A DNA stretch of 63,875 nt, filler included, from Nemertoderma westbladi (Eukaryota > Animalia > Xenacoelomorpha): the NCBI GenBank assembly GCA_032718475.1. It is 3 parts of 3 records of this genome, joined end to end, with 100 filler letters (N's around TTAATTAATTAA, not from the genome) between each part and the next. Parts side by side here need not be neighbours in the genome. Positions count along the whole stretch, not along the records: positions 42,322 to 63,875 come from JAUCBJ010006068.1; 2 more parts are not named here. The stretch is one strand, 5' to 3'. Shown one piece after another: positions 5,051-61,746 of the stretch (its first letter is position 1; each line of letters begins with the position of its first letter). Made by a program: the position numbers and the translations under genes. Below the pieces are notes generated by a model that searched no databases, was not told where the DNA came from, and was given only the letters and a program-made list of their open reading frames with translations.

Positions 5051-6445
5051 TTGCAAGAAGTGCAGCAGAGTATCGCGTTAGAACGCGATAAATTGGTAAA
5101 TATAAAAAGGGGTATAACACCACCCCCTGTAACAATGTGTCAACCTGTTAGGTCTGAAGTATTTCATGCGCAAGGTGTGGAGCCTACACGCATCTATACT
5201 GCTAGCGAAGTAGAAACTCCCATAGTAAACCCTATTAAGGGTATTTATAATCCTGTTGATAATGATATTCCACACAGATCTGATAATAATCCGAGAAATT
5301 TATATACCGATAATTCGATATTAAATAATACGATGGCTCAAGAAAGTTTTACATGTCAAATGGCTAGAACCGAAGCCCGTCAAGCGGTAAAAGTGGGAGA
5401 GGTCGTCAAGTTCAATGGAGATGAGATGAAATGGTTACCTTTTAATGAATATTACAAGGATAACATACAGAACTCCATACTATCTAACGGAGAGAAACTA
5501 AGATTCCTCATCGAGTGCTTGGAAGGACCTCCCAAGTTAATGGCGTTAAAGTTTATTGGACATCCAGATGGATTGAGACAAGTTTGGGATACATTAAACA
5601 TCAGGTATGGTAATAGGACTAACATAGCTAGGTATCTGTATGCGAAATTAATGGCGCCCCGAAAGTTTCTTAGCAGCGGGATTATAGAGTTTTCCGACGA
5701 GATTCAGGAGATCTGTAGACAGTTAGACTGGTTGGGTAAGTCTCATGAATACCAGAATTCTATGGTTGTAGGAGCCTTAGCATCAACTTTGCCAAAGGGT
5801 GGAGTAGGTACTCGCTGGGACAAAAAGGTTCTCTATTTGATGGACCAACAACATAGAGATCCAACCATGACGGACCTTCTGTCATTCTTAAATAGAGAGG
5901 TAAGATTACAGTTCCTAAAGCAGTCCAGAGAGAAGACATCGGAAAGTAAGGTAAGTGAAAAACCCGTTACTAGGAGAAAGGTAACACCAGTGTGTTATAC
6001 GGACGATGGCGAAAGCCAAACTTCCTATGACGAGAACAGCGGCAAGGACACCGAAAGATCTTATTATGTCAATAAACGTAAGTAAGTCTAATAATACGTA
6101 AGTAAATCTAAGTCTCGAACCAGTGACAGGAGAGAACAGGTAACAACTCCCCCTATGTCTCCTAAGAGAATTCATGGAAGGAAGCCCAAAGAAAGAGCTA
6201 GCGTACACAACACGATGCAGGTTAAGGTAAGTAACATCAAACCTAAATGTGTATTGTGCGACGAGCCACATCGCTTGAGTGGGTGTGATGAATTCTTAAA
6301 GAAATCCCTGAAGGATAGACATGATGTCATGTGGGATAAGCGGTTGTGTTATAATTGCCTCAGACGAGGACATCAATGACGGAACTGTTACTCAGACGCG
6401 AGGTGTGCTAAGTGCGGCGCGAAACATCATATCTTGCTGCGCACA
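5051..6445 (+). pseudogene. BEL/Pao Gag (DUF1759-like) with C-terminal CCHC zinc knuckles
   Basis: Motifs KFNGDEMKWLPF, EKLRFLIECLEG and WDTLNIRYGN. Knuckles CVLCDEPHRLSGC, CYNCLRRGH and CAKCGAKHHILL, interrupted by stops. Confidence 0.9.
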
Positions 6446-6508
6446 GAATTTGACAGGACCCGTACGAGTCAGGTAAGTGAACCCTGACTACATGTCCAAT
6501 TCAGTGAT

Positions 6509-7215
6509 GTGAACGACACTGACCACAGTTCGGAGATGGAAGGATTCTACACGGACGAATTCTCAGATGAAAATGAATCCTGTTATATGATCAACACAAC
6601 TGTGTATCGAGCGCTTACGTATGAGACCGAAACAGAAGGAGAAGATCCTCGACTGTCTATTCCGGATCGACAGCCCTCTTGGAAAGCGCCAACTTCATCT
6701 GTCGGTATCCGAGAATTCCCGGTGGTGCAACTGAGGGTGCATGGAATAGGGAGGAGCTTAATAGTAAACGCCCTCCTTGACTCCGGCAGTACAGGCACCT
6801 TTATCGACAAAGACCTAGCCGAAGATATCTTTGCTGGTCAACAAAAGTTCCGAACCAAACTGAACCTTTCTGGAATTATGCAGGTTTGGAAATCCACAGT
6901 AGCCACAGATTACTATGTGGGTGCGTTGTCCACTCCCCAGGATGAACTAGGAGAAAATAGTGTAAGGTCGGTCAAGATGGTGGCGATAAAGAACTTTGCA
7001 ACTAGCCAAGTGGAGCCTTACAACTGGAATGAAGATCATTTTACCCAGCAACACAACATACCTAGATTCAGTACGGATTATCCAGGGGTACAGATTTTAC
7101 TCGGCCAAAGTGCGCACGAGGCGCTTGAGACATTATAAAAACGGCCTGCTCGACCGCGACCACTCCAGACATATGCGGGAAGAACGAGAGTAGGTTGGTA
7201 CTTCACTGGACCTTC
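6509..7215 (+). pseudogene. BEL/Pao aspartic protease region
   Basis: ALLDSGSTGTFI catalytic motif, QILLGQ, and downstream RTRVGWYFTGP. Confidence 0.88.
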
Positions 7216-7473
7216 CCATAGGACCTTACTAGAAAGACTCCCAAGTCAATGAGTCCACCAGGTGAGTGAATGGAGGAAGATATAAGTGAAGAAGAAATTC
7301 CAGCTGAGGAAACTCCATACTCCTCAGATAATGATGGCATAAGCAATTTATATGACGAGGAAAATACTATCGATCTCCTCACTGAGAACTAAACTTGGTT
7401 AAACCAAGTCAACCTATGTAACCTTATCAACCAACATAGCGAACAGTTCACGTATAATGATGAATTAAACGCA

Positions 7474-9280
7474 GTGATAGATCTGTCTGTACTACACACC
7501 CCCGGTGACGACGCTGTGTATCTAAACTCACCCACGGATGTTACAAGAAATACAAGTAAATCCGTTATAAAAATCAGGGAAAGTGACTGGAAATCTGGAA
7601 CACCAGACGTCTCGCAAGGACTCTCTCCTCTCCTACAAAGAGCAATAGATCATTATAGCTCCTGGAATCGGCTTTGCAAGGCCGTTGTGTATCTGAAAAG
7701 GTGTTTCCATCATCACTATTCCAGGACAAAGATCGCTAGTGATACCACTCCGATAGTATCTGAACATGTCCATGCTATTAATAACCTTCCCACTTATAGA
7801 GTGTCTGATAGGTTTCTGACTGAGAAGATCAGTTACCAAGAACATGATGATACCAATAAGCAGATACTGAGACTCCTGCAATGTTACAAAGATTCCGATA
7901 AGTATTTCCTGTTGTTGAGAAATCCACAGATGCGCTTAAGGGATCGATTCTCTAGTACAATGATAGATGGGTTAATACGTGTTGGAGGGAGATTAACCAA
8001 TGCTCCATTATCCTTTGACACTAAGTTTCCCATACTCATTAGAAATCATGAAATACAAATCAAGATGATTGTAGATGTTCACAGTAGGCTTTACCATGCT
8101 GGTAGAGAACGAGTTCTTAGCGAAATTCGAACTCGCTATTATTTCCACAAGCCCCGTAGAGCTCTGAACCAAGTTCTTAGGAACTGTATACCCTGTAGGA
8201 AAGCATTTAGTAGGCCTTTAACACAGCGAGAGGCAGAATTACCTAGGGAATGAGTAAGCTGTTATGAAACACCCTTTACTAATACTGGTGTGGATTTATT
8301 TGGCCCTATTGAAGTATATCGTGCTATGACTATAGTCAAACGATGGTGTGTCATCTTTGTCTGTATGACTTGTAGAGCGATCCATCTAGATATGGTGAAC
8401 GATCTATCTACCAACAGCTTCATATTGAGTTTACGCCGACAGATCGCTCGTTTTGGGACTAGCAACACTATGAGATCTGACAAAGGAACAAACTTCATTG
8501 GCGCCAATAGTGAGATCAAAGCTTATGTGAAAGATTGGAACCAAAGACAGGTGGATGATCAGCTAAAGGTAAAAGCATCTAGCTGGACCTTCAACGCTGC
8601 CGACGCCCCTTGGTGGGGAGGAAGTTGGGAGAGACTAATACGAAGCGTGAAGACCGCATTTCACTTTATAGGGCCGTGCCGCGCGTATCTCACCGACGAA
8701 CTTTTGCGGACGTTAATGGAAGAAATCGCCGCCTATCTTAACGAGAGACTGCTTATGCCAGTCTCATCGAGTCCCGACTCCCTGGAAGCGCTAACACCCG
8801 CGCATTTCCTACTAAAGAAACCTGTAGCCATGCTCCCGCAATCGGAAATCACAGACGGAATCGAATACTGCCGACAAAATGCAGTTATTATCCTGTCGTT
8901 TCGCTGACCATTTTGAAAAACATTATCTTCCTACGCTACAACTTCGAACAAAGTGGTTTGCGCAGCAAGAAAACGTCAGCGCCGGAGACATGGTCCTTAT
9001 CATGGAATCAGATCTTCCACGTAAGAGGTGGCGGACAGGTCGTAACATCGAGACTCATATATCCGATGATGGTTTAGTGCGATCGGTAGAACTTGTCGTC
9101 ATGCGACGTAACTTTAAGAAACCTGGAATTGTATTCGAAACACAACAACTTAATCGCCCAGTTGGTCGTTTATGTTTACTGGAAAGAGACCGAGAGTTAT
9201 CCGGTAACTATGGAAGGCAAGAGACTCTTCCCACGACCACCTCCCTAATCCAACAAACATCTAGGGACTCCCCAATGTAG
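7474..9280 (+). pseudogene. BEL/Pao integrase (H2C2 finger, DDE core, DUF5641-type tail)
   Basis: YSSWNRL, GLIRVGGRL, HAGRERVLSEIRTRYY..CIPC, DLFGP, SDKGTNFIGA, PWWGGSWERLIRSVK, YLPTLQLRTKW, RPVGRLCLLE. One stop and one frameshift. Confidence 0.93.
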
Positions 9281-23306: not shown

Positions 23307-26300
23307 TATTTATAAATACTTGAAATAAAGTAACATTATTCTTTCAGTATGATTGTACCGTGCGGAGATATCACGAGACCGCTGATAAGTCGTCATAATA
23401 ATATAACAAAATACATAATATGTTCTAGAATGGTTTGTATCCGATGGCAGAGGTACGATAATGAAAATGGTGTGAATGGGTGTCGCCTGAGTCCTGAGTG
23501 CCTTGTAAATAAATACCTTATACTGTATTACCTATACTGTAAGTAACTTGTAATAAATACCGTTGTTTATATTATCCTCCAAAAATTCCATCCCCCATTT
23601 TCTTTACTCTCCCCCAAACAAAACTCTTTTAGAATTGTTAACTTTCTCAGGGAGACAACACATTTATTGAACTGTTATTTGTTAATTTGTACGGTTATTT
23701 TGTACGAGTAACTATTATAACTAACTAACTAACTAACTAAGTAACTAAGTAACTAACGTAATAATAGTTACGAATAGTTTAACAGTTCATTAGATAGTTG
23801 TCTCCCCTAAATCCCGTAATAAATTCTATATCATAATTTCCGTACTAAAAGTGTTATTTATTTCTTACGCAAATTGTGTTATATTGTACGGAAATTTGTA
23901 GCATTCTTGAAATCGTCAAGTTGTATTAATTCTACAGTATAATATTAGCTACCGCATTGTTACATAAATTATACTAAGAAAGATTCCCTATGAACATTAT
24001 GAAATAGGCCTACAATCATTCTAGAAAATATAAGTTTCCCGTTTCATTTAGCGCAATGTAGGCTACTATACTACATCTTGTCCTGGAATATAGTGTCGTT
24101 ATTCTGGTACATGGACCCCCCCCCCCCAAAATTTTTCTACAAATCTTAATGAGATTGCATGAAATTTGAAACAGAGATAGTTTCACCTCCCTCCTCCTGA
24201 CTGGGTGAGCCAGAAATTTTATTTTCGCTTTCGTTGTTTAGCTACAAACGTTTAAAAAAAGTGTCTCCGTCGATATAGCGCCAGTTACAACGTAGTTATT
24301 CTTCAAACTTTAAAGCTGCTGCGGCCGCTCGCCGCTGCCGCTCGCCGCTGCCGCTCGCCGCTCCTGTGGTGTATCATGGCCTTTAGTGATTTTTTGGTAC
24401 TATTGGAAAGCTGAAGAAGCAAAGATTCCAAATATGTAATAACATTTGAATTTGGTTGGGAAATAGCTGAGATATGGGTATTCGAAATTTGCATGTATTT
24501 GCTTCCGCTGCAGGCCATTTATTCCTTTTAATAAATACACAATGTTCTAGAATATTTTGTTTATCTCATAAGTAGCTTGGCAATAATGAATGCAATGCCT
24601 AAATGGTAATACTAGTATATGGATATTCATACATAATCAAAATGTATTTATTTTCCCTTTTGATGGATTTCAATATTTTTGGTGTTATCACCATATTTTG
24701 CATCAACATTGATGGTTACTGGCAGCCTCTCGCGTTTTTCAGCAAACAACTAAGACCTCCAGAACAGAGGTATAGCGCATTTGACAGGGAACTATTGGCC
24801 CTATACTTAGGTATTCGACACTTTCGTTATTTTCTGGATGGCCGAGAGTTCACGGCCTTTACAGACCATAAGCCTCTAACTATGGCAATCTCCAAAGCTT
24901 CAGACCCCTGGTCTCCTCGACAACAGCGACACCTGGCCTATGTCTCCGAATTTACAACAACAATCAAACATATATCAGGGAAAGATAACCTGGTCGCAGA
25001 CGCACTTTCACGAACAGGGGTCAATGAACTTTCTCTGTCAGTTCAGTCTGGTTTAGACTATATATCCATGGCAGTTGACCAATGTACTGACCCTGATATT
25101 CAGGCTTATCGCACTGCAATCAGCAGTTTGGTATTACAGGATGTGCCGTTTGAGCCAGGGGGCAATACTATACTATGTGATGTCTCACTGGGCCACCCTC
25201 GTCCAGTGGTTCCAGAGCCTTGGCGTCGCCAGGTATTCGATGTTATACACGGATTGTCACACCCCTCTATACGAGCCACACGTAAACTTATAGCTGATCG
25301 TTTTGTTTGGCATGGTATCCATAAACAAGTTGTAGAATGGGCCAAGTCATGCATTCCCTGCCAAACTGCAAAGATACAGCGCCACATAAAGGCTCCTATA
25401 CAACCAATCGCCATCCCTGAGAGACGCTTTGATCGCATACACGTGGATCTCGTGGGGCCTTTACCAGTCTGTCAAGGTTACTCACACCTCCTTACCATTG
25501 TTGACAGAACTACTAGATGGCCCGAAGCCATTCCTCTGTCTGACACCTCAACACCAAGCTGTGCGAGGGCTTTAATACTCAACTGGATAGCCCGTTTTGG
25601 AATCCCCACTGACCTATCATCTGATAGAGGATCTCAGTTTACCTCGACACTGTGGGGTGAAGTGACAAAACTGTTAGGTGTACAACACCACAAGACCACC
25701 TCCTATCACCCACAGGCCAATGGCCTAGTAGAACGTTTCCACCGATCTCTAAAAGCATCACTAAAAGCCCGACTTAGTAGCCCCAATTGGTTAGATGAAC
25801 TGCCCTGGGCCCTCCTAGGTTATCGAACTGTACCAAAGGAAGACTTAGGCTGTTCCACGGCAGAACTCGTGTATGGATCGCCATTAACTGTCCCTGGGGA
25901 CTTCGTTCGCTCCTCTACAGCTCCGTCAGACCCACAGGCACGGTTGACAGAAGTGAGGGAACAGGTGAAGCATTTTCTCCCACCCCTAACTACTCAACAC
26001 AGTAACACTTCCGCCTACGTTCCTTCAAAACTCCATAACAGTAATTATGTGTTCATCCGTAGAGACTCACATCGAACACCCTTACAGTGACCGTACGAGG
26101 GTCCATTCAAAGTTATTTCAACTGGACCCAAAACGTTTACTGTAGATTTCAGCGGGAAGCCTCAAACCATCTCAATAGATCGATTGAAACCTGCCCATTT
26201 AGACTCTGATCACCCGGTTACGGTTTTTATACCACGTCGCAGGGGCCGCCCGCCTATGAAACATAAAATCGAACTTAGAGCGCCACCCAGCGCCAATATA

Positions 26301-38426: not shown

Positions 38427-39346
38427 TTACATCCATTTAGGTGCCTTAACGAAGGCAACTGAACAACTCCCAGCCATTGAACAAGGCGATCCCACTAATT
38501 CAATTACAACCAACACCTGTCTACCAGATTTGCTTAGTTGTAACGCAGACTTCGGTATAAATAAGGTTAACTGGGGGCCGACTGCTGACCAATACCGACC
38601 TAATACTTTGCCATTGAGAATTGCAATGCCTTTATTCCACCCACTCATGTCTAAGAAGGTATCTTCCATGTCACTTTCATTAATAAAGAACTCATTACGG
38701 TATATGAAGGGAGTGTTGGTTTCCAAATCATAACCTCGATGAATAGATTTCTCAAAAACCCATTTTGAGATGTATTTCAGAAATCCCTGAGAAGCAATTA
38801 TTTGATTAATATGGTTTTTGAATACAAGTGGCTCAAACCCAAGTCGATATATGTCCCAATTCTCTAAAGGTTTCCCATTTAATTCTGCACTTCCTATTCC
38901 CTTTCCTTCGTTTAATGCTTTACCATAACAGATCCGCCCCATGTTCTCAACTAGGATGTCTAGTCTAGTTAAACCGGCGGGTACAGAGATGTTGACTGGT
39001 TTATTCCTGTAGGAGAAACCGAACGATTGTTTATCAATAATGATGTAGGCAATATCCCTGAGGTTGTTGATAGTTAAAGTTTGTTTTTTGTTTATATTTG
39101 TGATATTGGTTCGGTACAGTAGGAATCCATAGTTGAGGTTGAGTTCTTCGAATGATCGCAGGTGTGAATTTCTAGCAGCACGACTGTGAGGCCACAGTAT
39201 ATTCAACATGTCAGTCAGTGAGCCAATTGGCAACAACTTTATAATTCCATAAGAATTCTTTTTAGTTGGAGGAGGAACTGGGATTGGTAATGGTGTATAT
39301 TTGGCTACTTCATTGCGGATCGCATAATATTTGGGTGTTGGATCAC
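38427..39346 (-). CDS. GLB1: Beta-galactosidase (GH35), last exon
   Basis: CAG acceptor then (G)DPTPKY, LDILVENMGRICYG, DTFLDMSGWNKG, LGRYWSAVGPQLTLFIP. Phase matches the previous exon. Confidence 0.92.
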
Positions 39347-39522
39347 CTGTGCGAAGGTAATGACAATTAAACAGCTATCTTGTTTCTTTATAAAAAAAAA
39401 ACTATTGCTACTAACTTTCAACTTGACCAATTATTGCATTTTTCTCGCATAATATAATACCTCACCCCGCAAAATTAGAAAAATATTTTTTCATAGTATT
39501 CTTGGTATCCAATACTAATAAT

Positions 39523-42320: not shown

Positions 42321-42513
42321 NATAGTAGGCCATGGCACTACCCTTATAATCACTACATACTGTACTGTAGTTTTACTTGTACATACGGAACCTGCTATGT
42401 TTGTTTATCTGAAAAAAAAAAGATGGGCATGGCTGTAAACATTACGCGGCGCAGACAGCAGCTGCAACTCCATTGGACATCCGTTAAAAACAGTAAGGGA
42501 AAGGATCAGGTTA

Positions 42514-43883
42514 TGTTCGCGGTATTTCAACTTTTCTTAACGCGAGTTGAATATTTTTTGGATTTATTTACAATGATTATTCCGATATCACTACTGGGTG
42601 CGGGAACATGGGTTTTGGGCACACTCGATGGACTGGGGGCGATTTCTGGGCGGATATTGGGGCGACTTACGGGGTACGGGACTCATTTCATGTATTTAAG
42701 GGCCAGGGGTGGGAGGCAAAGTTAAGCAGTATTCAGGTTTGCCTAATTACTATTAGGCCTAGCCAACTTCCTGCTGCCTATAGAGGTGGATTTGGTAACT
42801 CGCTAGGTCTAAAGGACAAGGACTGCCCTTACCGGTCCCTGGCCAACAGCAGTTATTACGAGCCTGAAAAGGACATCGGAAAGTCTGCTGCTTGTGTCAG
42901 GGATTTGCGACGGGAACTGACGACAGACCCCTAGCCAAGCTGTACTGGTCCCTGACCGATCCCTTCGGGGTTCGGGAAGGGTGGGACGGACACGCGAATG
43001 GGTCGACTGACTAATGGGGGAAGGGTTCAACGAGGACTGCCTTCCTGAAGTGGGTTCCACGACCGGCGTTAGTACGAGCCTGAATAAGGACTCGGAAAAC
43101 CACCAACCGTTGGGGCTCACGACGGGCTGACAGACCCCCTTGCCAAGCCGTACTGGTTCCTGACCGATCCCTTCGGGGTTTGGGAAGGGTGGGACGGACA
43201 CGCAACGGGGTGTAAAGACAAAGGACTGGACTCTACTGGCCTACCGACTGTTCGGAGCAGCTTCTCGGCTGCCGAAGCGACTACGAGCCTGAATAAGGAC
43301 TCCCCTGCGATGAACCGACGGACCCCTATCCAAGCCGTACTGGTTCCTGGTTCCTGATGACCGATCCCTTCGGGGTTTGGGAAGGGTGGTACGGACACGC
43401 AAACAGGTCCACCGACATGACAGACCCCTAGCCAAGCCGTACTGGTTAGTGATGATCGATCCCTTCGGGGTTTGGGAAGGGTGGGACGGACACGCAACAG
43501 GGTCGACCGACACCGACACTACGGTACCGAGACTAGGACCGGGGGAAAATTGGGGAACATTAGTTAGGCTAAAATCTGATCGAACAGTGGGTAATTAAAT
43601 AATGTACCGTAGGGATTTATATTGTCGTGTTATATTATTGTGAATATTTGGTGTATATTGGTTTGGGGAAGCCCAACTTATTCTCAATCAAGATTCAACT
43701 GTAGGGAAGTTACATTAAAGAGTATATCCAACCAATGAAACTTTTCTCAACTGCAATCTTGCATTTAAGAACGTATTCCTTCTCCACTACCAATATCCGG
43801 TGACTGGCCGGGATTCCGTGGTCTGAAAAGTTCCGCCTCCAGCATCGGCGTTTTCCCCCATGGTGTCGGGAATAACGGCAACA
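42514..43883 (+). repeat. 5' LTR (1370 bp)
   Basis: Direct repeat of 53867-55250, differing by scattered substitutions, a 7-bp duplication and a 21-bp deletion. Confidence 0.97.
43654..43719 (+). promoter_or_regulatory. Putative LTR TATA-like box, transcription start near 43677, and poly(A) signal
   Basis: TATATT at 43654 and ATTAAA at 43714-43719. The TSS is inferred from spacing only. Confidence 0.45.
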
Positions 43884-43885
43884 AA

Positions 43886-43897
43886 ATTGAGAATAAG
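43886..43897 (+). promoter_or_regulatory. Primer-binding site position, complementary to LTR 43677-43688 (candidate self-priming site)
   Basis: ATTGAGAATAAG lies 2 nt after the LTR and is the exact reverse complement of CTTATTCTCAAT. It does not start with TGG. Confidence 0.7.
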
Positions 43898-44090
43898 ATG
43901 CGGCCAACTTCGACTGGTGGAAGTTGGGAATCCTACAATACTCTTCAAATTCTCTCCGTGCTTACCCAGCACCAACTACAAGGAAACTCTGGTATTTGAG
44001 TTAAGACAAAGCTGTGGTTTAATCAATCGACAAACTCGATCTAATAAACTCGTAGTCGGCAGATCACATATAGAGAGTCGTTAACAGGGA

Positions 44091-44282
44091 ATGGAAGTAT
44101 CGATCACACCCATTGATATAATCCAAGTTGAGCCAGGAATCTGGCACGTCGAAGTTGAAGTACAAGGAACGAACGTCGGACGATTCAGGATTACCGTTCG
44201 GGTAGTCCAAGCTGAGTACGAGACCTACGAAGAACTGTTTTACAACATCGCATATCTAGCTATCAACGAGGCGCTAGAATGA
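44091..44282 (+). CDS. 63-aa upstream ORF overlapping the gag start (ATGA)
   Basis: Stop TGA 44280-44282 overlaps gag ATG 44279-44281. The sequence has a protein-like beta-strand then helix pattern. Confidence 0.55.
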   Translation: MEVSITPIDIIQVEPGIWHVEVEVQGTNVGRFRITVRVVQAEYETYEELFYNIAYLAINEALE

Positions 44283-47200
44283 CGACGAACAACGTCTCCG
44301 ATACCGATGAGATGGACCACCACACAGACTCGGAAGCCGACGAGGTACCGAACGTAAAGAACATGACCCGTCGACTAGGCGCTCTCAAGGGCGGAGTCAC
44401 TCGAGCGTATCAACATATAGAGAAACAACTCAAGGGAGTCGAAACCCCCCTCAACGAGATACAAACTCAGCTACAGAATATCCGAAGTATCTTACAACAA
44501 TATGAGAGGATGATACAGGCGTATCAAGAACTCATCCCCGCCACCGATCAAGTAAACTACCCTAGACTAGAAGAACACGTTGTACATCTAGATGAGTTCC
44601 GCAAACAACACCGGAGGACCCTCAGCCTCGTGAGAGGTTACGAGGAGCAGTACTATAAGAGAGCTGAAAGAACAGACGCAGAATCAGTGCGAACCTCCAG
44701 CACCAGAACAGCAATTCATCGAAAGAGAACGGGGTCCTCGAGGCACCAGCACTCCAGCGCTAGGAGCGAGATGTCCGGTTCAGCACGCAGCTCTCAAGGG
44801 GGTCAGCCACTCCGAGATCAGCTACGAGAACAGAGGGCATTGGCCCTCAAAGCTCGGATGGAAGATGAATATGTTCAACTGCGAGTCGAGCAAGATGTAT
44901 TAGCAGCCGAAATGCAAAAACGAGAGGCCAAACAACAGGCCGAACAACGTAGACGAGAGGCCGAACAACAGGCCGAACAACGTAGACGAGAGGCCGAATG
45001 ACAGGCCGAACAACGTGAACGAGAAGCGGAACAGGAGGCTGAACAACGTAAACGAGAGGCCGAACAGGAGGCCGAACAACGTAAACTGGAGGCAGAAATG
45101 CGTAAACAACATGCCAAGGTCCAAGCGATTCTCATCCATAAAAAGAATGCGGATATTGCGAAACTCGCGGAATACGAAGCCGAACTCATAGAACGTGATC
45201 TTCAACTATATGAGGACTGGGAAAGGGGTATAGAACAGAACTATGAACCAATCCCAGTCCCGGAATTAGAGAAGTCATTTACACCACCGGCGGCGAAACC
45301 TCCGAAGCCCGAGTTCCCGCCAACCATACAGTCTACGTTATCGGCCCAAGCACCGGTATTCCATCCCCCACCGGTTACGCTTAAGAATGAGGAACCTTAT
45401 TTCCCAGCCAACCCCACGGTCCCGAGCGTTCCCAAGTACGAGCCTGAAAAGGACTCGGAACGGGACGCCACCCCTCGATCCAACAACCCGTTTACATCCA
45501 CACCACAAATCCGTAACCGCATCATCATTAAAACCCCACCTCTCATCGATCCATCGTGCATGGGAGAGAGTGCCAATAACTATAACCCTCCTAGTCATTC
45601 CAGTTCAGATGACGTCGGCATTATCCGGGCATTGGAAAACCGCCTGGCCATGTCCAAGATGGAGATCCGCACCTTCGAAGGAGACCCCGTCGATTACCTC
45701 AGATTCAAGAAACGGTTCTTCGCTCAGATTGGGTCAACGGATATAGCCGACGCACAAAAACTGGTATATTTATCCCAATACCTTGGCGACAAACCACGCC
45801 GAATCATTGCATATTTTGAGGGAGGAGCTCATGAAGCATATTATGATGCATGGAAAACTCTAGACAAAAGATACAGAAATACCGGGACTATAATTAATAA
45901 AACTCTCGAGAAACTGATACAGGATGCGGGATCCCTAGGGGACCCACAGAATATCCAGGAGTTCTCGGATTCCATGAAAGATGCATACTACACTCTAAAG
46001 CCATTAAATAAGGAGGAACAAGTAAACAACATTCTAAACCTCCGACAGATTGCCCGAAAGTTCCCCGGATGGCTACAAAGTAAGTGGGCGTATAAATGCG
46101 TAGATCTCCGACGCAGACACCCAGATCGAGATCCCAGTTTCCTCGAAATGTCGGCATTCCTGGATGATATCTCCGAAGCCATGAATGACTCGATGTTCTC
46201 CAAACAAAGTCTCACCAAGTTAGATGGAATAGAAAACAACTCCAGGAGCAGGACACCCACTCAGAAACCGAGATTCCGTCCCCCTCCGGTGAGTACGATG
46301 GCTATCACCATGGACGAGGATTCCGACGACGAGGACTACGAGGAACCGACATCACCCGAGGAATGGGCGTGTTATCTTGCGAATTGGGCACCCGAAAGGG
46401 AAGGCACCACAAACTCCCTTCTCTGTCTCTTCTGCGGAGAGAAACATAAGGTGGAATTCTGCAGAAAGTTCCAGTTTGCCAAACTCGTCCCACGCTTCGA
46501 GGCGATAATGAAACACCGAGGATGCTTCCGGTGTCTTGGAACAGGTCACTATGTTCGGGATTGCGACCAAAGATCGTGCTGCGCGGTCTGTAATGACCTA
46601 CGTCATCACACACTCCTCCACATCCCCGCGAACTTTGACTTTACCACCCTCCCCTTTCGGATCGAAGCCAAACGAAGAGGAGAAACGAACCACGTCTCTA
46701 AAGGAACCCGGACGATTCAATGGAGGGAAACCAACCCGTTTAAGACCTTCACTGATGTATCACAAGTGACAAATATCTCGGCCACGATCAACCTTATAAA
46801 TTGCCGTTACATGGTCTTCGCCAAAGTAATCCCAGTAAGAATTCAAGGGGTCGGGAAATCATTGACAACGCTCGCGTTCCTTGATAACGGGTCGGACGGA
46901 ACCATCATCGACCGGGATTTCCTCGAACAACTCGGCCTAGACTACAAACCTTGCAAACGGCCCATACAAACTATCACCGAGCATAGAGAAGTAGAGTCCG
47001 GGGAGGTGCAGCTCCAGATGGAAGGAGTCATGAAGGGCTACGAGACGGTTAAGCTGACGATCAAGAATGCCTTGGTACACACCGATCTCCGAGTGCGGTT
47101 CCGACAATCAGCTGAATACGCCCCTCTCATACAGTTAGACCGGGAAGATGTAGACCTAAGGTGTCCACCGTTGGACGTGAACCACATCACCCTATTGATC

Positions 47201-50200
47201 GGACTCGACACACCGGAATTACACATACCCACAGGAGACGTCGCCCGATCTGTAAAGCAGGATGACGGCTTTTATGCCGAACGTACGATCATGGGATGGA
47301 CACTCTGCGGCATCAAGGAGGAGACTACAGACACCTATACATACCTCCCTAAATGTCAGATTAAAGAGAATGCAACCTCCGTGGGTTATTGTTCAGCTAC
47401 AGACCTGGACGAGGATTTATTCCTTGAGACCGAGAAAACCCAGCAGGAGATGACCAAATACTTTAATCTAGAGACCCAAGAGTTTGCTGAAAAGGACGAG
47501 AACCCGTCCGAGGAAGAACAATATTGTATTGATGTCCTTGATCAGGCCAAGTTCAAAGACGGACATTGGTGTTCACCCATGCTATGGAAAGACCCAGATA
47601 AACCGATGGCGAATAATGCCAACATGGCCCTTAGGCGGCTTAAAGGAATCCTACGCCTGTTGAATGAACAACCCGAGATAAAGGAGAAATATAATAATGT
47701 AATCAAAGGATATCTAGAAGATGGATTGGTGGAAATGGTACCCCGGAATGAACTGCAAGGGGGTAGACGGACATATTATCTCCCAACCCACTATGTGGTA
47801 GAAGCCCGGAAGGGCGGTAAAATCCGAGCAGTCAATGATGCTGCTGCTATGTATCAAGGCGAATCCCTGAACAGCCAACTTTATACAGGGCCCAACATAT
47901 ACAGTACATTTATCGGCGTGTTGATCAGGTTCAGGGAAAACCGGATAGCATTCACATGCGACATCAAAGCGATGTTTCACCAGGTCCGAACGCTACCAAG
48001 AGACTCAGACTGTCTGCGTATATTATGGACGGATAAAACATTAACTCCACAGGAGATCAGTCAACTCACATTGAAGGATGTGGATGTAATGCGCATGATC
48101 GTCAGGATCTTCGGCGCTAAGGACTCGCCAGTAGCATGTAGTGAGTGACATGCTGAAGAAAACAGCGACTATGTGCGAAAATGAGTTCCCTCCAACAGTC
48201 ATAGAAACCATCCGACGATGCTTCTACGTGGACGACGGATGCGCCAGTGCCGATAATGTTGACGAGGCATATCAGCTAGCGATGGGGATGGTGGAATGTT
48301 TAAAGAGAGGAGGTTTCCCTCTCGTGAAGTTCAGATCCCACGACAAAAAACTTATGGAAAAGTTTCCGGTGGAAATCCGACTGGACAACAATAAAATGTA
48401 TTCCGAGGATGTGGATCACCATGTACTCGGCATTGAAATGGGACATAGAATTGGATGAATTCATCTTCAAATATAACACCCTACCCAAGCCCATGACGAA
48501 AAGGGGATGTTTGTCTATAAAAAGTGCAATATTCGACCCACTAAACTTCATATCTCCGGTAACCTTGGCCGGAATGAATTTGATCAAGGAAATGTGGATA
48601 GAAGGACTGGGATGGGATGAAGAACTCCCCCCACACCTCAGTGTCAAATGGAGAAAGTGGACGGAACAACTCGAACATCTACATCTTATGCGGATCCCTC
48701 GACCGTTCTTCCTCGATAAACTACCCACCGATATTTTCCAGCTCCACACTTTCTCGGATGCTTCGAATACCGGAATCGGCGTAGTCACTTTCCTAAGAAG
48801 ACTAAGTCAAGATGGAAACGGCGACACGAGCTTCTTATTTTCTAAAGCTAAGACAGTATCCGGGGAATTCGTAGCAACGATTCCGAGACTTGAGCTACAG
48901 GCCGCAGTTTGGGCAGTGAGACAGAACCGCATGGTCATGCGGAACCTACGAATCCCCATCGAATCGCAACATTTCTGGGTCAATTCGAGTATCATTCTCT
49001 ACTACCTCCACTCACCATCACGGCGATACACCACGTTCGTAGCGAACCGAGCCATGGAGATAAAACAGTGCACCGGCCGAGAACAGTGGCACCATGTAAA
49101 TGGAAAAGAAAACCCAGCGGACTTATTGAGCAGAGGCACCACCCCACGACAACTCGGTAAAAGTAAACTCTGGCTCACCGGTCCGGAATTCCTACAGCAA
49201 CCACAATTAACCTGGAGTACCCGATTTGATCCCGAACTCGATAGCGGAAAATACTCCGAAGACGACAAGGAGATCCGCAAAGTCCATAGAAGCGCCACAG
49301 TGGAGATCTATAGTTGTCTGACCGAGCCTGCAAAGGACTCGGGCAGGCACTATAACGTCGCGACGATCACGCAACCAGCGGCGTCTTTACAACTATTGAA
49401 CGAGCGAACTTCATCAATGAGACGTCTCATCCACCACGTCATAACCCTTCGCAACTTCCTACGGTGGAAAGACAACAAACCGACAGTTCAACGAAGTATA
49501 CAAGAACTCATCATTGGGGAGAAATGTATTGTTAGATATGTCCAGAAAGTAAGTTTCCCCGACGAGTGGGAACAACTCAGTGCAGGCAAGACCTTGAAAC
49601 CGGACAGTCCAGTCTACCAATTGAGACCAATGATGGGAGAGGACGGACTGATTCGACTGAATACCCGGATGGCAAACGCCCCGGTTGAATACGAGGTCAA
49701 ATACCCAGCGCTTCTGCCCGGAACATCAACACTAGCCAAGCTATTAATCCAACAGTGTCACGAGGAAAACCATCACGCGGGACAGAACTGGATTATAGCT
49801 AATATACGGCAAAGATATTGGATCACCCACATCCAGCCACTGATCCGGAAAGTGTTAAAACATTGTTTTCCCTGCAGAAGATATCTAGCGCCACCACTCA
49901 CACAAAGGATGGCCGACTTACCAGCCACGAGACTGCAGTCCGATTCCCCGCCATTCTACGTAACCGGAGTAGACTGTTTCGGACCATTCACAGTCATCGA
50001 GCGACGATCCAACATCAAATGCTGGGGAGCCATCTTTACATGCCTTAGGTCTAGGGCAATCTACCTAGACATCGTGGTGAACCTTACACAACACGCATTT
50101 ATCAACGCCCTGCGTCGGTTCGTGGCGAACAATGGGACATGTCGTCATATGTACTCCGATAATGGTACAAACTTTGTGGGAGGAGAAAGAGAACTTAGAG

Positions 50201-50313
50201 AGGCGATCGAGGGATGGTTTACCGAGGACACCGCATCCCAAGTCTGGAGGGAACACCATATACAGTGGCACTTCCAAACACCCTTAGCACCCCATACGAG
50301 CGGGGTATGGGAG
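44279..50313 (+). pseudogene. BEL/Pao Gag-Pol polyprotein (one stop at 44999, two frameshifts near 48145 and 48430, integrase truncated)
   Basis: Gag FEGDPVDYLRF; knuckles CLFCGEKHKVEFC and CFRCLGTGHYVRDC; PR FLDNGSDGT; RT CDIKAMFHQV and FYVDDG; RH LHTFSDAS, TIPRLELQAA, ENPADLLSRG; IN GVDCFGP, SDNGTNFVG, SGVWE. Confidence 0.96.
44921..45095 (+). repeat. 33-bp coding tandem repeat in gag (EAEQQAEQRRR), ~5 units
   Basis: Read directly. Confidence 0.9.
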
Positions 50314-51166
50314 GTTTTATGTTTCTCAGTCGCGTTATTCTGGTGGGACCGTTGCGTGGATTTTGGGGCGTAGGCGGTGTAACTAGTCCAGCTATAGATC
50401 CCAGAATGTTGAGTAACCCCATCCCACATGACTTCGTCGACTGAGCTTTATGTTGCTGGGAGTGTTATTCTGGTGGGTCCCTGGTGCATTCCACGTGACT
50501 TCACTTCCAGCGTCTTCATTGTCCGTTACGTGTGCAGTTTGGGGCGTAGGCGGTGTAACTAGCCCAGCTGTAGATCCCAGATTGCCGCGTAACACCCCTT
50601 CAACAACGAAAATTTCCCAAAGAAGATGATTGAATGTAGTTGGAAATGATGAAAACAAACAGACAACCCTACTATAAACTGAATGATGACGCGTATGATG
50701 ATGAAAATGTAATGATGCGCACCCTGGTGCTGCGCTTATAACAATGATGAAAGCCGGGGGGCTATAACCCCAATATGATGAAGTGGAAATAAATGAAATG
50801 TGTAATAAATGGTGTAATAAATGATGAAATGGTGGAAATAAATGATGAAATGTGTTGAAATAAATGAAATGAAATGAGAAATAAATGAGAAATGAAAAAA
50901 GACAAAAAAATGTATAAAATGTAGAAAGAAAAGAATCGGAAAAAAGAAGAGGACATAAAAAGTCAAAACTGGTTGGATATTAATGTATAGCTATAGTAAC
51001 TGTAAATGCTGAATGTATTAGCAATAAGATGGTAGAAGCCTATATAGCAATGTTATTTAATAAACTGAACTACAAATAAACTGAATTATTCTGCAGTCAC
51101 TATAGTATCAGACTTTCTGGATTTATAATTAACTGATCTAAATTTTCAACGGACATAATTGAAAAT

Positions 51167-53684
51167 ATGGACCCAAATCGCCAAATTATCGGCAAATTAC
51201 GTAATACGATAGATTTACTGGAATATCCACAACCTGGATCCCCTAACTTTGATATAAATTGGAACGCCCTGATAAATGAGAATGTGCGAGTCGTCAAATT
51301 CTCCGGGCGAGAGGGACCGGATTCCCGGAATCTACGAGCCCTCCGGTTGTCTGATGCTAGTACGAGACTGAAAAGAACTCGGAATGTAAAGGCAACCGGA
51401 GAGGATGAGTTGTCGTACTGGGAAACGTTCCGGCAAAGCGTCTACAAATCCCGATGTTTGATATACGACAACGAGGGAAACGCGACGCCCACCTCGAAAG
51501 CGATTACGTTGGTGCGATGTCAAAGTTTCGTCGATGACAAGAGTACGTACCTCGCCCACTGGGGAAACCTAGCGGAGTGTACGGCAACGCTGCGAGAGGA
51601 ACGTATATCAGTTATCCAGAATCGCGACGACCACCAGGAGAAGTACGGGACGAAAGAATACGGTCGATCCTTGGTCGTCGTCCTCGGAACCCTGGATGGT
51701 TTGGTGTTGGTATGTCGAATATTTCCGACACCCAGACAGGAGGTGCGGACAGCCGGAGCGATCTGGCTACTACCACCCGAGATCCAAAAGATCCTATTCG
51801 ACTTCGACATAGGGCCGGATATAAAGGCGGACGTCCGAAACGACTACGCGAACGCTCCTTTCGGAAGAGACTGTCGAGAAGATCTCAACGCCATTAGTCA
51901 TTGTGTCGACACCCAAACTCTATTAGCCTGGTTACGATCCGCCGAATTCCTGCGAGGATTCCGAGAAGTGAGACAGACGAAATCCAGCATCGGCTACCTC
52001 GCAGTGCTAAACGGCGGCATAGACTTTAAACCCCAGAAATTCCAGGACTATAATAAGATATATGGTGGATACCCGGGATTAGAAATAAAAAGTGAGCGAG
52101 AGAGTCGCTGGAAGGACGTTGAAAGAAAGTGGACGATCCACCACAAGTGGGAGAATCCGGACCGACGGAACTACATCTACGTCATTATGGAATCCTACAC
52201 AGTCGCTAAGTTCATATGTAAAACTCTCGATAGTCTCATTACTGCGGTTCCTAGATCCTTTATCGACTACGGGTGGAACGAGGTCATCAACCACGCGTTC
52301 AAAGAGGTCGAGAATATTACACCTGGAGAGACGAAAACGCTCACCGTCATCGCTTCCTGGGACGAGAATGGGCCGTTCGACATCCCTACGATTACCGATC
52401 TCCTCGGTGCGGAGGAACCACTGATTTCCTCGGAATCGCGTACGAACCGGCCGCCAAACGGGTCGCCTCGGCCAAACCTGCGACAGAAGCAGGCGTTTCC
52501 ACCCCACTTGGCTCCGGTAGCCCCGCGAGGGAGTTAGTCACTACCTTTGCGTTGAACGACTTCGGCGGCATATGTCAGAGGTTATCCCCATATCCGTTCC
52601 CGGGTGGCGAAGACTGGTCGTCGGAGATTCCGAGTACCAGCACCCAACGGACCCGCTCAGCGATACTGGTTGAAAAGGGTCCCAGCGCTGCGCCGACTCC
52701 CGAAGATCTCCTCGGAATCCCTCCATCGAAAACCCCGGCACCTCTTCGCCGACCAGCGGTGGCAACTACCCCCTCCATTCCACAGGATCCTATGCGACTT
52801 ACCCGATGGTACGCCGAGCAGACCGAATGGATCCACCGCCAGAAACGGTCATCCGAGATGAGACTGGCAGGACATAAAGAAGGTTATCGAAACGAGAACA
52901 TACTACGCCAAAGCACCGCTTTTCGCGGGCTACCGCCCACAGCGGATATTCCAAAAAGCGACTGACGACTCGAGTATTACGTCGGCGTCCCGATTCTGAT
53001 ATTCTTCGGCCGGGAGATCCAGTTAGCGGAGACTGTGGTTCGGAGCAGTGCCCACGCGGTAGAAGAAATCGAGTAACCGATTCGTGCCTCCAGCTCCTCG
53101 GGATACTGTATTGTCCCTATTGCACGACATCGGGACATGATGTTTCAGTTTGTCCAACCCTCTATAACCTCTGCACAACATGCGGTTTCCGTGGACATTC
53201 CACTAGCCCCCGCTGCAATATAAAGTGTCCCACGAAGGACGTTACCGCTATGGGAAATATGGTTATGTTCGAAACCTACGCAAACAGCCACATAAAGACC
53301 AAAGTACGGAAAAACGCCCGGAATATCGCGCAAGAGATGGCGTGCGGGTATTTTTCGTTCCCGGAGCGCCTCCATACGACAGCGACGCTACCATTCCATT
53401 ACGTGGATCTGTTGCTAAGCGCAGGATTATTCGGCCCATTCGAGATCCTTAGACGCTTATATTCGTATAAGGAAGAGTTTGGTAACGGAAAGTGGTTCTT
53501 AGAGGCACACAACACTGAGTTAGAAAGACGAACCGATATGATCCCGCTACCATCGAAAGGAAGAGCCGCCAGGAGACAAGCCGAAACGTTGCTCACGATG
53601 GATGTTGACGCTCCCCTACCAGCACTAGCGATCGACGAGAGTCGACGGGCGAAGAGGAGAAAGGCGTATCAGAGCAAGAAATAG
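51167..53684 (+). pseudogene. ORF3: DEDDy/DnaQ-type 3'-5' exonuclease-like domain, basic linker and two CCHC zinc knuckles (disrupted after codon 456)
   Basis: LPPEIQKILFD..IGPDIKAD, VDTQTL, SSIGYLA..GIDFKP and KWENP...IY match the spacing of WRN/EXD-type exonuclease domains. CPYCTTSGHDVSVC (53112-53153) and CTTCGFRGHSTSPRC (53172-53216) lie in the open frame 52878-53684. Confidence 0.7.
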
Positions 53685-53857
53685 AGGACCAGGATATTCC
53701 AGGAACATTTATATCGAACATTTATTTTTTATATATTTACATAAACTAACTCTAGGCCAAATTAATCAAGACTATGCAATATTAAAAATTTTGGGTTTTT
53801 TATATGGGAAATGACCTACGCAAACTCGATCTACCGATAGACCTCACGAAGGTCATT

Positions 53858-53865
53858 GGGGGGGA
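53858..53865 (+). promoter_or_regulatory. Polypurine tract
   Basis: GGGGGGGA one base before the 3' LTR TG. Confidence 0.85.
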
Positions 53866-53866
53866 C

Positions 53867-55250
53867 TGTTCGCGGTATTTCAACTTTTCTTAACGCGAGT
53901 TGAATATTTTTTGGATTTATTTAAAATGATTATTCCGATATCACTACTGGGTGCGGGAACATGGGTTTTGGGCACACTCGATGGACTGGGGGCGATTTAT
54001 GGGCGAATATTGGGGCGACTTACGGGGTACGGGACTCATTTCATGTATTTAAGGGCCAGGGGTGGGAGGCAAAGTTAAGCAGTATTCAGGTTTGCCTGAT
54101 TACTATTAGGCCTAGCCAACTTCCTGCTGCCTGTAGAGGTGGATTTGGTAACTCGCTAGGTCTAAAGGACAAGGACTGCCCTTAGCAGTCCCTGGCCAAC
54201 AGCAGTTATTACGAGCCTGAAAAGGACATCGGAAAGTCTGCTGCTTGTGTCAGGGATTTGCGATGGGAACCGACGACAGACCCCTAGCCAAGCCGTACTG
54301 GTTCCTGACCGATCCCTTCGGGGTTCGGGAAGGGTGGGATGGACACGCGAATGGGTCGACCGACTAACGGAGGAAGGGTTCGACGAGGACTGCCTTCCTG
54401 AAGTGGGTTCCACGACCGGCGTTAGTACGAGCCTGAATAAGGACTCGGAAAACCACCAACCGTTGGGGCTCACGACGGGCTGACAGACCCCCTTGCCAAG
54501 CCGTACTGGTTCCTGACCAATCCCTTCGGGGTTCGGGAAGGGTGGGACGGACACGCAACGGGGTCGAAAGACAAAGGACTGGACTCTACTGGCCTACCGA
54601 CTGTTCGGAGCAGCTTCTCGGCTGCCGAAGCGACTACGAGCCTGAATAAGGACTCGGAAAGCCTAGGTGGTTGGGTCCCTGCGATGAACCGACGGACCCC
54701 TAGCCAAGCCGTACTGGTTCCTGATGACCGATCCCTTCGGGGTTCGGGAAGGGTGGTACGGACACGCAAACGGGTCCACCGACATGACAGACCCCTAGCC
54801 AAGCCGTACTGGTTCCTGATGACTGATCCCTTCGGGGTTCGGGAAGGGTGGGACGGACACGCAACAGGGTCGACCGACACCGACACTACGGTACCGAGAC
54901 TAGGACCGGGGGAAAATTGGGGAACATTAGTTAGGCTAAAATCTGAGCGAACGGTGGGTAATTAAATAATGTACCATAGGGATTTATATTGTCGTGTTAT
55001 ATTATTGTGAATATTTGGTGTATATTGGTTTGGGGAAGCCCAACTTATTCTCAATCAAGATTCAACCGTAGGGAAGTTACATTAAAGAGTATATCCAACC
55101 AATGAAACTTTTCTCAACCGCAATCTTGCATTTAAGAACGTATTCCTTCTCCACTACCAATATCCGGTGACTGGCCGGGATTCCGTGGTCTGAAAAGTTC
55201 CGCCTCCAGCATCGGCGTTTTCCCCCATGGTGTCGGGAATAACGGCAACA
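53867..55250 (+). repeat. 3' LTR (1384 bp)
   Basis: Direct repeat of the 5' LTR, followed by TSD GGTTA. Confidence 0.97.
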
Positions 55251-56537
55251 GGTTACAGTGGCGAGTTAATCTAACCAAAAACACTAAACGATGTTCAGGA
55301 GCGCCGGTTGTCTGCTGTCGGAGTAGCATTTACAACCGTCAACCGTGCCTTATATATAGGTGTATTATAGTATTAGGAAGTAAACAATAAAATATGACAG
55401 GGGGATCTTATTTCCTTCCCTTATATTAATTTCACACAATCCCCCTAAATTCGTGGTTGTCAAACATTATAGTATAGGATTTAGGAGGTGGTGGACAGGT
55501 TATAGTATTAATAATATTGTGTGGGAGTATATAGTAAATGTTTTGTGTGATTTTAGTAGGTAAGTCAATAATCCGATTGATGCACAGCTGGCATCTTTTA
55601 GTATTTTGTGCAATAGCCTTTCAAAAAGGAACTGTTAATACAGTGAATATTGGCCACCAATATTTTGATAAAAAATACTTAGTGATGAAAATGAACGAAT
55701 TTTACGTAATTAATGTTAAATTCAAAATGCGATCATTTATATTAGAACACCGATCTAAGACGCCCTTTTACATTTTTATTATACCAGTCACATCATACAT
55801 ACTGTATTTCTGCTGTGTATGATCTAGAGTCCCGAATAGACGGGATTAATTTTTGGAAAAAAATCCACCCACAAAAATTCCCTTATTCTAGACAGACTAT
55901 TAATTTTTTCTAAAACGTTTGTTCTCATAATAATTTAGAGTGAAAGAAAACAAAAACCGTGTACCGAGTATACCACCGGTCAGGGTTTCTTTTTTCAAAA
56001 TGTTCACTGTGAAAAGTTTCTAAACGGTTAGAGAAAAAATTTAGAAAATCTAAATTTTGTTTATGAAACCAAAATAATTTGCTCAATTGCGAATGAATTG
56101 AGAAAGTGAAAAGTGGGCCATACACATTGGTGCTGTTTATTATTACTGCTTGTTTTCTACTTTATTCAAACATACGATGGTACATTCTGTAATCATAAAT
56201 ATCATCGAAATATTAAAAAATTAGGCCTACTACTGTATTTATTTAATACAGCTTTGGTAAACGAAAGCCATTTATTGGGAATGAATACTCCAACTGATTG
56301 GTGATGGTCACAGTTGAAAGGGACAACGAAAAAAAACATTTTGGATAAAATATGCGTTCAGAGTTTTTGTTGTTGAAATTGAATTAAATGCTTATACAGT
56401 ATTATTCTTGTTACATAAAGAAATGGAGGGAAATTTGATTCAAATTATGATCACGATGCTAAATTAACTTTTCTACTTCAGTATCATGTATTCTGAAGGC
56501 AGATTATTCGCAATTATATCATCATACTGTCATAATT

Positions 56538-59807: not shown

Positions 59808-60842
59808 TTAGCCAATAAGGAAGCTGTACGGGTAACCATGGTATTTTGATTTGAATATACTGAGTAGCAAACTGAAGAAGATCACGACGATCGCTATACC
59901 GGCGATCGTGAGAATTCGTCGTTTACCCGCGAAGGATTTATTGCCTGCCGAGCCGCTGGGAGTCTCATTGAGCAGGATGAGGCCCAAAGTGATGGCGACG
60001 TTGAGGACAATAACGATGTGTGTCTCCGCGATGAACTGGCTCTGGGAGCCCGTGTTGATGTAGTGCACCTGCCCGGTCCGCTGGTCGGGCATCGCGTACG
60101 GCGGGCCCCGGATATGGTTCCACATCTGTCCGCTGGTCATCACGAAGATCACGGCCAGACAGCCGACCCCCCAGACGGTTTTATTGTAGAGGAAGTCGAG
60201 ATTGTTTCGACGTAGGAACAGGAGCGCGGCTACGAGGCTGAACATGAGACTGAGGGCGATTGTTCCTGAGTAGTTTGGGGGTCGGAAGACCCGAATGTGA
60301 ACGTCTGTTCGCTCGCCGATCCACTTAGAGATCGCTTCCGCAGAGAAACCAACCCGCTGTAGATCCATATTGTCACCTTTCTTCATCTTCCCTTTTGGAG
60401 GGAAGTGGATAAACATTGGTGCGGAATTCAACTTCAAACTGTTGAAGATTTCCTGGCCTTCATCGAAGTCGACGAGTGCGAAGAATAGCTGCGAGTTGAA
60501 GAAGTTCGAGTATCGCCAGGAGTTGGCAACGATCTGGAATTCCTCGTGGGCAGAGCGACAGATCTGGCAGCCGCGTTTTGGGTTGAGCGCCGTCAGCATT
60601 ACGATAACCGAGTAGGGTTTCGGAGAGGTCTTTACGTATTGTTTAAACTTCTCGGAGTTTAACCGGATTACCGGTCGTTTAGCCGACATTTCCTCGAGGA
60701 CTCGGACTCTCTCCTCTACTGGGTTCACTACGGCGCTCGGGTCTTTCCTTGCCGAACTCCGTGCGAATAGATTCACACCAACCAAGACGATCAGGGATAA
60801 ACCCAATAATTTGGCTTTGGAGTACTGCAACATTGGTGACAT
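59808..60842 (-). CDS. TUSC3: Oligosaccharyltransferase OST3/OST6-family subunit (TUSC3/MAGT1 co-ortholog)
   Basis: Signal peptide, thioredoxin-like [39 protein letters not shown], four TM segments and C-terminal [13 protein letters not shown]. Intronless. Confidence 0.95.
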
Positions 60843-61746
60843 GTTCGTTGATTTGATAGAACGTGTACTGGTGTAGGCCTAAGCCGATCAATTAGGCCTA
60901 ACAGTATGAAATACAGACAGTTCGACTTAGAATTGGGGACGTTTCGTTGTCTTTCGATGTCCGGTATAATCCTACACCTACTGCTGTACTGCGCTGTAGG
61001 CCTACTGCTAATACAGTAATAATTCTGTCTATCTAGTGCTGTAATATTACACCGCACCGGCAGTGTGGCTTGAAACAGCGCTACAGCCTATGATGGGGTT
61101 GAGTCAGAGTCATGAATGTTTAATGTTTGTTAATATTAACTTGGCAAAGAAGGGGAAGTTTGTTCTCAAAATTAGCTTTATCGAATAAGGGAAAGGAGAC
61201 GGTTACAGATTGCAGTGGCACGTTATTCTAGCCAAAACAGGAGGCTTAAACCAATCTATAATATATTATTGTTACTACGATAATTACTTTCAGTTTGGTC
61301 TTTCTTTTGGTGTGCACGGGTTCCATAAGCATTATTATCTTTCTTATACAGTACCGGTACCCTAAACTATTAAACATTAAACAAACCACAGTCAATATAA
61401 CAAACAGGTTAGTTATAATTTTATTTTTGGGAGTAATCAGCTTTCATCAGTATTTAGCGAGCTTATAGTTTAGAAAGTTTTCATACAGTCTGACTTCTGA
61501 AGTTCATCTGTCTGGCGCAACGGGGCATAATGTAAAAACAAGCATTTCACTAATAGATAACTAGCTGGTGGAATTTAATAGTATTTGATTTGATACAAAT
61601 TTCAACATTTGTATACAGTAGGAGTAGGTCAATAAAATGTATAGGGCATACGCCGACAGATGGTCAGAGACCCACACCGTCTGTACCAGCCGCTAGAGGC
61701 CGACATAAATTTTTACTACCAGTTTAACGCAAACTTTATATGGGCC

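Follow-up and report, generated by a model that had tools for sequence, protein, structure and literature searches.

A BEL/Pao retrotransposon of Nemertoderma westbladi with a primer-binding site complementary to its own LTR, suggestive of Tf1-like self-priming

We describe a 12.7-kb BEL/Pao LTR retrotransposon, bordered on either flank by the 5-bp target duplication GGTTA, in a 63,875-nt stretch of DNA from Nemertoderma westbladi (the window, made of three joined parts of assembly GCA_032718475.1), and we propose that this element likely primed minus-strand DNA synthesis with RNA encoded in its own LTR and not with a tRNA. The proposal comes from sequence analysis of this copy and of its relatives. 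The 5' LTR is followed by AA and then by the primer-binding site (PBS) ATTGAGAATAAG (43886-43897). The window has just two copies of its complement, CTTATTCTCAAT: one at 43677, the other at the equivalent 3' LTR site, 55044. A sequence-only reading of the window had drawn attention to this PBS as one without TGG and perfectly complementary to 43677-43688; its letters and distances (the 12-mers, the TATA-like box, ATTAAA and the hairpin arms) all hold in the sequence (Table 1), and the match itself is rare in controls. When the whole LTR was shuffled by dinucleotides 10,000 times, a perfect anchored 12-nt match arose twice; 10,000 such shuffles of its last 300 nt likewise gave 2, and 1,974 pseudo-PBS control positions in the internal region gave none.

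Table 1. Positions, in window coordinates, of the parts of the element and of signals in its LTRs and leader
Feature	Position	Strand	Remarks
5' target-site duplication	42509..42513	.	GGTTA
5' LTR	42514..43883	+	1370 bp, TGT...ACA; against the 3' LTR: 33 substitutions, 28 gap columns, K2P 0.025
GC-rich tandem units in the inferred U3	42928..43514	+	no Rfam match
Putative TATA-like box	43654..43659	+	TATATT, non-consensus; starts 23 nt before 43677
Alternative stem, 5' arm	43655..43671	+	partner 43779-43796; blocks the primer:PBS duplex in the predicted fold when RNA starts upstream of ~43658
Candidate self-primer	43677..43688	+	exact complement of the PBS; ends AY, as in relatives
Predicted hairpin from the first base past the primer	43689..43761	+	spans half of ATTAAA; z -3.0; not general among relatives
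Candidate poly(A) signal	43714..43719	+	ATTAAA; sole A[AT]TAAA 3' of the primer in the LTR; starts 37 nt after 43677
PBS	43886..43897	+	2 nt past the LTR end; without TGG
Post-PBS hairpin	43904..43927	+	8 bp, arms 43904-43911 and 43920-43927; not conserved in relatives
gag-protease-RT	44279..48145	+	DUF1759, zinc knuckle, aspartyl protease, first part of RT; in-frame stop 44999-45001
RT piece with YVDD motif	48135..48455	+	different frame; breaks near 48145 and near 48430
RNase H (Peptidase_A17) and integrase	48328..50370	+	
Orphan ORF within the element	51137..52534	+	466 codons
Second orphan ORF, Cys/His-rich	52878..53681	+	weak zinc-knuckle match only, E 0.2
Polypurine tract	53858..53865	+	G-rich; 1 nt 5' of the 3' LTR
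3' LTR	53867..55250	+	1384 bp; identical 12-mer at 55044-55055
3' target-site duplication	55251..55255	.	GGTTA

By its Pol the element is filed as BEL/Pao-type, and its priming is called atypical. Pfam matches to DUF1759 (E 4e-13), a zinc knuckle, a protease, Peptidase_A17 (E 5e-38) and an integrase zinc domain make up the BEL/Pao set, the domains follow the order gag-PR-RT-RH-IN as in BEL/Pao, and PF05380 is present in all of the 120 homologues listed. Among the matches listed, the closest proteins share 33-38% identity, and every named source is an aquatic animal. The element has the LTR hallmarks of Belpaoviridae, namely two LTRs of the form TG...CA (95.6% identical here), a target duplication and a polypurine tract (PPT); it lacks the 18-nt tRNA-end PBS of that family, there being no TGG within 4 nt of the LTR end, and it exceeds the family's size ranges both in its LTRs and in its total length. 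A PBS complementary to the element's own LTR is instead a trait of Tf1/sushi elements. The element is not a member of that group, since its Pol is of BEL/Pao type and no chromodomain match was found by Pfam in the element, whose integrase end is missing from this copy.

An alignment of 30 homologues was used to fetch 99 loci, the metagenome part of which was the best 80 of 558, and a direct repeat lay around the coding region in 39 of the 99. We left out 18 of these 39, in which the repeat reached the contig end, and from the 21 kept L006 was then dropped likewise, leaving 20 relatives; the LTR end of L005 was shifted 6 nt so that it fits that of its relative L038, and L035 was trimmed by 1 nt. 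The 20 relatives, 30-37% identical over RNase H-integrase, amount to 17 LTR families, with LTR similarity within three pairs. No TGG stands within 4 nt of the LTR end in any of the 20, in all of which that end is fixed by the direct repeat. Under the strict splice rule, a match of 10-15 nt to the relative's own LTR is present in 17 of the 20, against 8 of 414 cross pairs, counts that are not independent of one another given shared ancestry and the many relatives from similar samples; the loss of complementarity in relatives, which the sequence-only reading had named as fatal to its idea, is not what most of these elements exhibit. A pyrimidine filter set at 9 of 15 instead of 10 brings in L015 and raises the figure to 18 of 20, of which 5 matches are contiguous and 13 are spliced, the latter being required to have canonical donors and acceptors (GT-AG). 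The two relatives that fail, L010 and L057, look by eye like near misses and were not counted: L010 has one mismatch in its junction match, and L057 fits 11 nt when its LTR end is moved. A de novo scan of 56 further loci, which used features learnt from the first relatives and many of which may be without an LTR, gave 13 with at least 11 nt, as against 6 of 168 control pairings. Viral contigs gave 26 pattern matches, with no relative among them. L001-L020 are animal BEL/Pao elements on contigs of prokaryote genome bins, likely through host contamination.

The relatives also bear on whether the match in this element could be a chance inverted repeat in the AT-rich leader of a decayed element. 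The copy is indeed broken, and the window was chosen from a large scan, but the shuffles, the control sites and the recurrence of the same feature in 17 of 20 relatives already largely refute this explanation, and we regard it as scarcely credible.

Most of the relatives would form their primer only once a predicted LTR intron had been removed. A match across an exon-exon junction cannot be an inverted repeat in DNA, and so the pairing in these elements would take place at the level of RNA. Compensatory changes between the repeat and the PBS in related families, which had been suggested as a check, were found in one pair, belonging to a family other than this element's: two of the three primer bases that precede a homologous donor differ between L002 and L003, and at both of them the PBS changes to match. 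In a quick unrooted tree of 50 rows, built without named reference elements, contiguous forms stand in four places among the spliced ones, and their introns may have been lost repeatedly; this element lies there on a long, unsure branch (2.18) with no close relative. It carries its candidate primer ready-made, possibly via the loss of an LTR intron. A search for an intron in its own LTR found no GTRAG donor and a best spliced match of 5 nt, and a possible GTAATT-to-AAG intron at ~43590-43671, which is without a pyrimidine tract, was dismissed by eye.

The PBSs themselves argue against any outside primer common to these elements. The 17 PBSs carry 16 different 11-mers, and there is thus no tRNA that they share. 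A PBS that binds a host tRNA half or fragment, with the LTR match being incidental or a copy of the PBS, would have precedent, as half-tRNA priming is known in Copia lineages (excerpts of PMC6317226), but the PBSs vary by family and track their own LTR, and matches at splice junctions suit spliced element RNA and not a tRNA, so that we consider this explanation very unlikely. The two tRNAs found in locus L019, the sole tRNAs compared, match at best over 4 nt, which is uninformative.

We examined the surroundings of the primer and PBS in a set of 16 elements, consisting of 15 relatives and this one, from which the two failures and three family duplicates had been dropped. The 3' end of the duplex is AY in 16 of the 16, this element included (2.0 expected; one base of latitude was allowed for L002), and in 12 of the 16 there is a CA near the 5' start of the primer (3.7 expected, in a window chosen after viewing the data). 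The TATA-like box on which the sequence-only reading had leaned fares less well: of 16 elements, 5 have one at the distance predicted, where 3.1 would be expected (P 0.17), which is no enrichment, and in this element TATATTGG departs from the TATA-box consensus and shares the AT-rich part of the LTR with other TATA[AT] matches, four in all. The hairpin after the PBS, which the same reading had noted, has a mean z of -0.22 across the 16 elements and by itself is not significant in this copy (z -1.4). The idea of self-priming in BEL/Pao as first put forward for this DNA keeps its core, backed by relatives without TGG, matches to the own LTR and co-variation, and its TATA, hairpin and start-site details are weaker than it implied; it overlooked the splice junctions of most relatives and the defects of this copy.

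Folding of this element's RNA gives a sharp prediction of the start site. In the predicted minimum-energy fold of 43677-43935 the first 12 bases pair with the PBS (z -3.3; none of 200 shuffles was equally stable). For RNAs starting at 43658-43676 the predicted probability of the primer:PBS pairing is 0.79-0.97, and it is 0.58 for a start at 43678; for starts at 43650-43656 it is 0.03-0.13, the stem 43655-43671/43779-43796 taking over. The CA near the primer start in most elements and this predicted folding both point to a transcript start at ~43677.

Self-priming might still take place other than from the RNA 5' end, either because the primer lies inside a longer leader or because another transcript, a second one or one that ended early, provides it in trans. 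The TATA placement, which is not enriched, and the 4 of 16 elements without a CA near the primer start fit this variant, as does the size of the first exon, only ~5-13 nt, that a 5'-terminal primer would imply in the spliced relatives. Against it stand the frequency of CA near the primer start, with the reservation already given on how that window was chosen, and the drop in the predicted duplex for starts upstream of ~43658 in this element. We think this variant unlikely, a judgement that applies to the variant only, since it shares its core with the explanation that we prefer.

It is also conceivable that the pairing is selected but structural or regulatory, serving for instance in a leader fold, dimerisation or site masking, while priming falls to a host small RNA or a protein. 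There is no sign here of the three-duplex arrangement described around the PBS of Tf1, and the leader has several competing stems, both of which would suit such a role. This element's predicted fold has a U5 stem, and an 8-bp candidate third duplex exists; the third duplex showed no excess over controls among the relatives (length 5.75 own vs 5.86 cross, pseudoknots being gauged via complement length alone). The duplex, however, always starts 0 to 4 nt past the LTR end, the very place at which DNA synthesis has to begin, its AY 3' end is conserved, and the diversity of the PBS 11-mers leaves no common outside primer, for which reasons we find a purely regulatory duplex decidedly improbable. 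Other structural candidates were rejected: a hairpin just upstream of the primer is apparent here and has a mean z of 0.06 in 17, folds after the primer were no better than shuffles across the relatives, and the post-PBS hairpin, the post-primer hairpin and the third duplex as conserved features did no better than controls. The region of the 3' arm of the post-PBS hairpin (43921-43933) is also complementary to 43667-43679, around the primer 5' end, and 43715-43725 is complementary to 43938-43948; both pairings are possible competing folds.

If self-priming from the RNA 5' end is correct, then the transcript would begin at 43677 or within a few bases upstream of it, with the CA at 43674-43675 as the best candidate, and the first bases of the RNA would fold onto the PBS. 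The element's own RNase H would then cleave behind 43688, as RNase H does in Tf1, and reverse transcriptase would copy the two-base spacer and U5, reaching 43689, before it jumped to the 3' repeat. Points against self-priming are the PBS offset from the LTR end, which ranges from 0 to 4 nt, the two relatives that fail, the TATA placement and the lack of an excess of flanking duplexes. A wider reading, which we find plausible if a little short of probable, is that a large and widespread BEL/Pao branch in aquatic animals has given up tRNAs in favour of an RNA self-primer, usually put together by the host's splicing from a micro first exon with an LTR intron, that intron-less forms recur when splicing removes the intron from the copy in the 3' LTR, and that in this element the alternative stem restricts primer formation to correctly started transcripts of the 5' LTR.

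Were the self-priming explanation right, self-priming would be found in all three LTR superfamilies and would be common in animals, splicing would be directly tied to the start of reverse transcription, and annotation tools that demand a tRNA PBS would miss or misjudge such elements. This copy would be useful mainly as an intron-less case with a sharp start-site prediction, as it is defective: it has an in-frame stop, its frame is broken near 48145 and 48430, and the end of its integrase is absent, similarity to relatives stopping at ~50331 with the last ~190 residues missing. Some of the frame breaks could be assembly errors, the draft having gaps.

The 3' part of the element inside the LTRs (50331-53690) is filled by an AT-rich spacer and then by the two orphan ORFs, a region that is possibly an accessory gene or captured DNA. 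Searches with the second ORF gave no relative, and for the first no homologue was found in Pfam, PDB sequences, phmmer or the Atlas. A resemblance of the first to a 3'-5' exonuclease was rejected, being unsupported by Pfam, PDB sequences and phmmer; its Atlas hits are all <0.9, and a single-sequence fold with pLDDT 29.5 is unusable for the purpose. In the U3 there are about four GC-rich tandem units (42928-43514, and 54281-54881 in the other LTR), two of them with CTGATGA-hairpin-GAAG, which is reminiscent of a hammerhead core; the core is non-canonical and Rfam gave no match, and a hammerhead ribozyme was rejected. A motif of ~20 nt, possibly a small bulged hairpin, occurs in the U3 at 42859, 43075 and 43284 and once more in the gag coding sequence at 45439.

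Elsewhere in the window, 5213-9208 holds a second, more decayed BEL/Pao element with no detectable LTR pair, and 24603-26090 a Gypsy-type RNase H-integrase ORF bordered by duplicated sequence (23307-24311/32020-33010 and 26566-27349/33333-34117) without the look of TG...CA LTRs. Two host genes lie on the minus strand, an uninterrupted TUSC3/OST3 frame at 59808-60878 (66% to amphioxus, the nearest TUSC3) and a beta-galactosidase segment at 38427-39374.

The ICTV profile of Belpaoviridae (Semotivirus) gives an 18-nt PBS for tRNA-Arg or -Gly, LTRs of 0.2-1.2 kb and genomes of 4.2-10 kb, in agreement with the earlier remark that BEL/Pao elements are generally described as tRNA-primed, and calls their replication poorly understood (PMC8742986). 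Achilles, a BEL/Pao element of the olive fly, has a tRNA-Tyr PBS according to excerpts of PMC4580426, and tRNA priming thus holds for at least some BEL/Pao. This element resembles Belpaoviridae in domain content and order, LTRs and PPT (PMC8742986), and differs from them and from Achilles in having no tRNA-end PBS, LTRs of 1.37 kb, a length of 12.7 kb and the orphan ORFs. In the literature searched we found no report of self-priming in BEL/Pao; subscription papers, Repbase Reports, GyDB pages and supplements may hold a prior mention. A word search in PMC3118150, PMC554778, PMC6238403 and PMC2774666 gave no discussion of PBS or tRNA, and the excerpted parts of PMC3601003, PMC5445492 and PMC8220671 contain no self-priming for BEL/Pao.

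Outside BEL/Pao, the fungal Copia element GalEa is like this one in having no tRNA PBS, and its authors report a conserved hairpin site and no LTR complement in excerpts of PMC5445492, whereas in this element an LTR complement is central and relatives do not share the hairpin. Self-priming has been predicted from sequence for the plant Ty1/Copia TAR lineage (Houba, Osr-1), which lies outside Ty3/Gypsy, and for plant Tcn1 (PMC6317226, in part); the same prediction is made here, for another superfamily and other hosts. The closest parallel is with Tf1/sushi elements, the Ty3/Gypsy chromoviruses Tf1/Tf2 (Schizosaccharomyces pombe), Tj1 and Tosmo/Tcry, which likewise have no tRNA site and a PBS of ~11 nt against their own LTR-encoded RNA (PMC7175516 and PMC4600332, both in part). 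In Tf1 the PBS pairs with the initial 11 bases, and cleavage by RNase H follows base 11 (excerpts of PMC7175516), for Tj1 self-priming is predicted (PMC4600332, in excerpt), and a three-duplex pretzel around the Tf1 PBS is described in excerpts of 10.1101/2022.12.06.519325; compared with these, our element has a BEL/Pao Pol, no chromodomain match and no sign of a pretzel. Most of its relatives, in contrast to Tf1, need a splice junction, and priming has been shown for Tf1 where we infer it here. What would be new is the occurrence of a known mechanism, Tf1-like self-priming, in a superfamily described as tRNA-primed.
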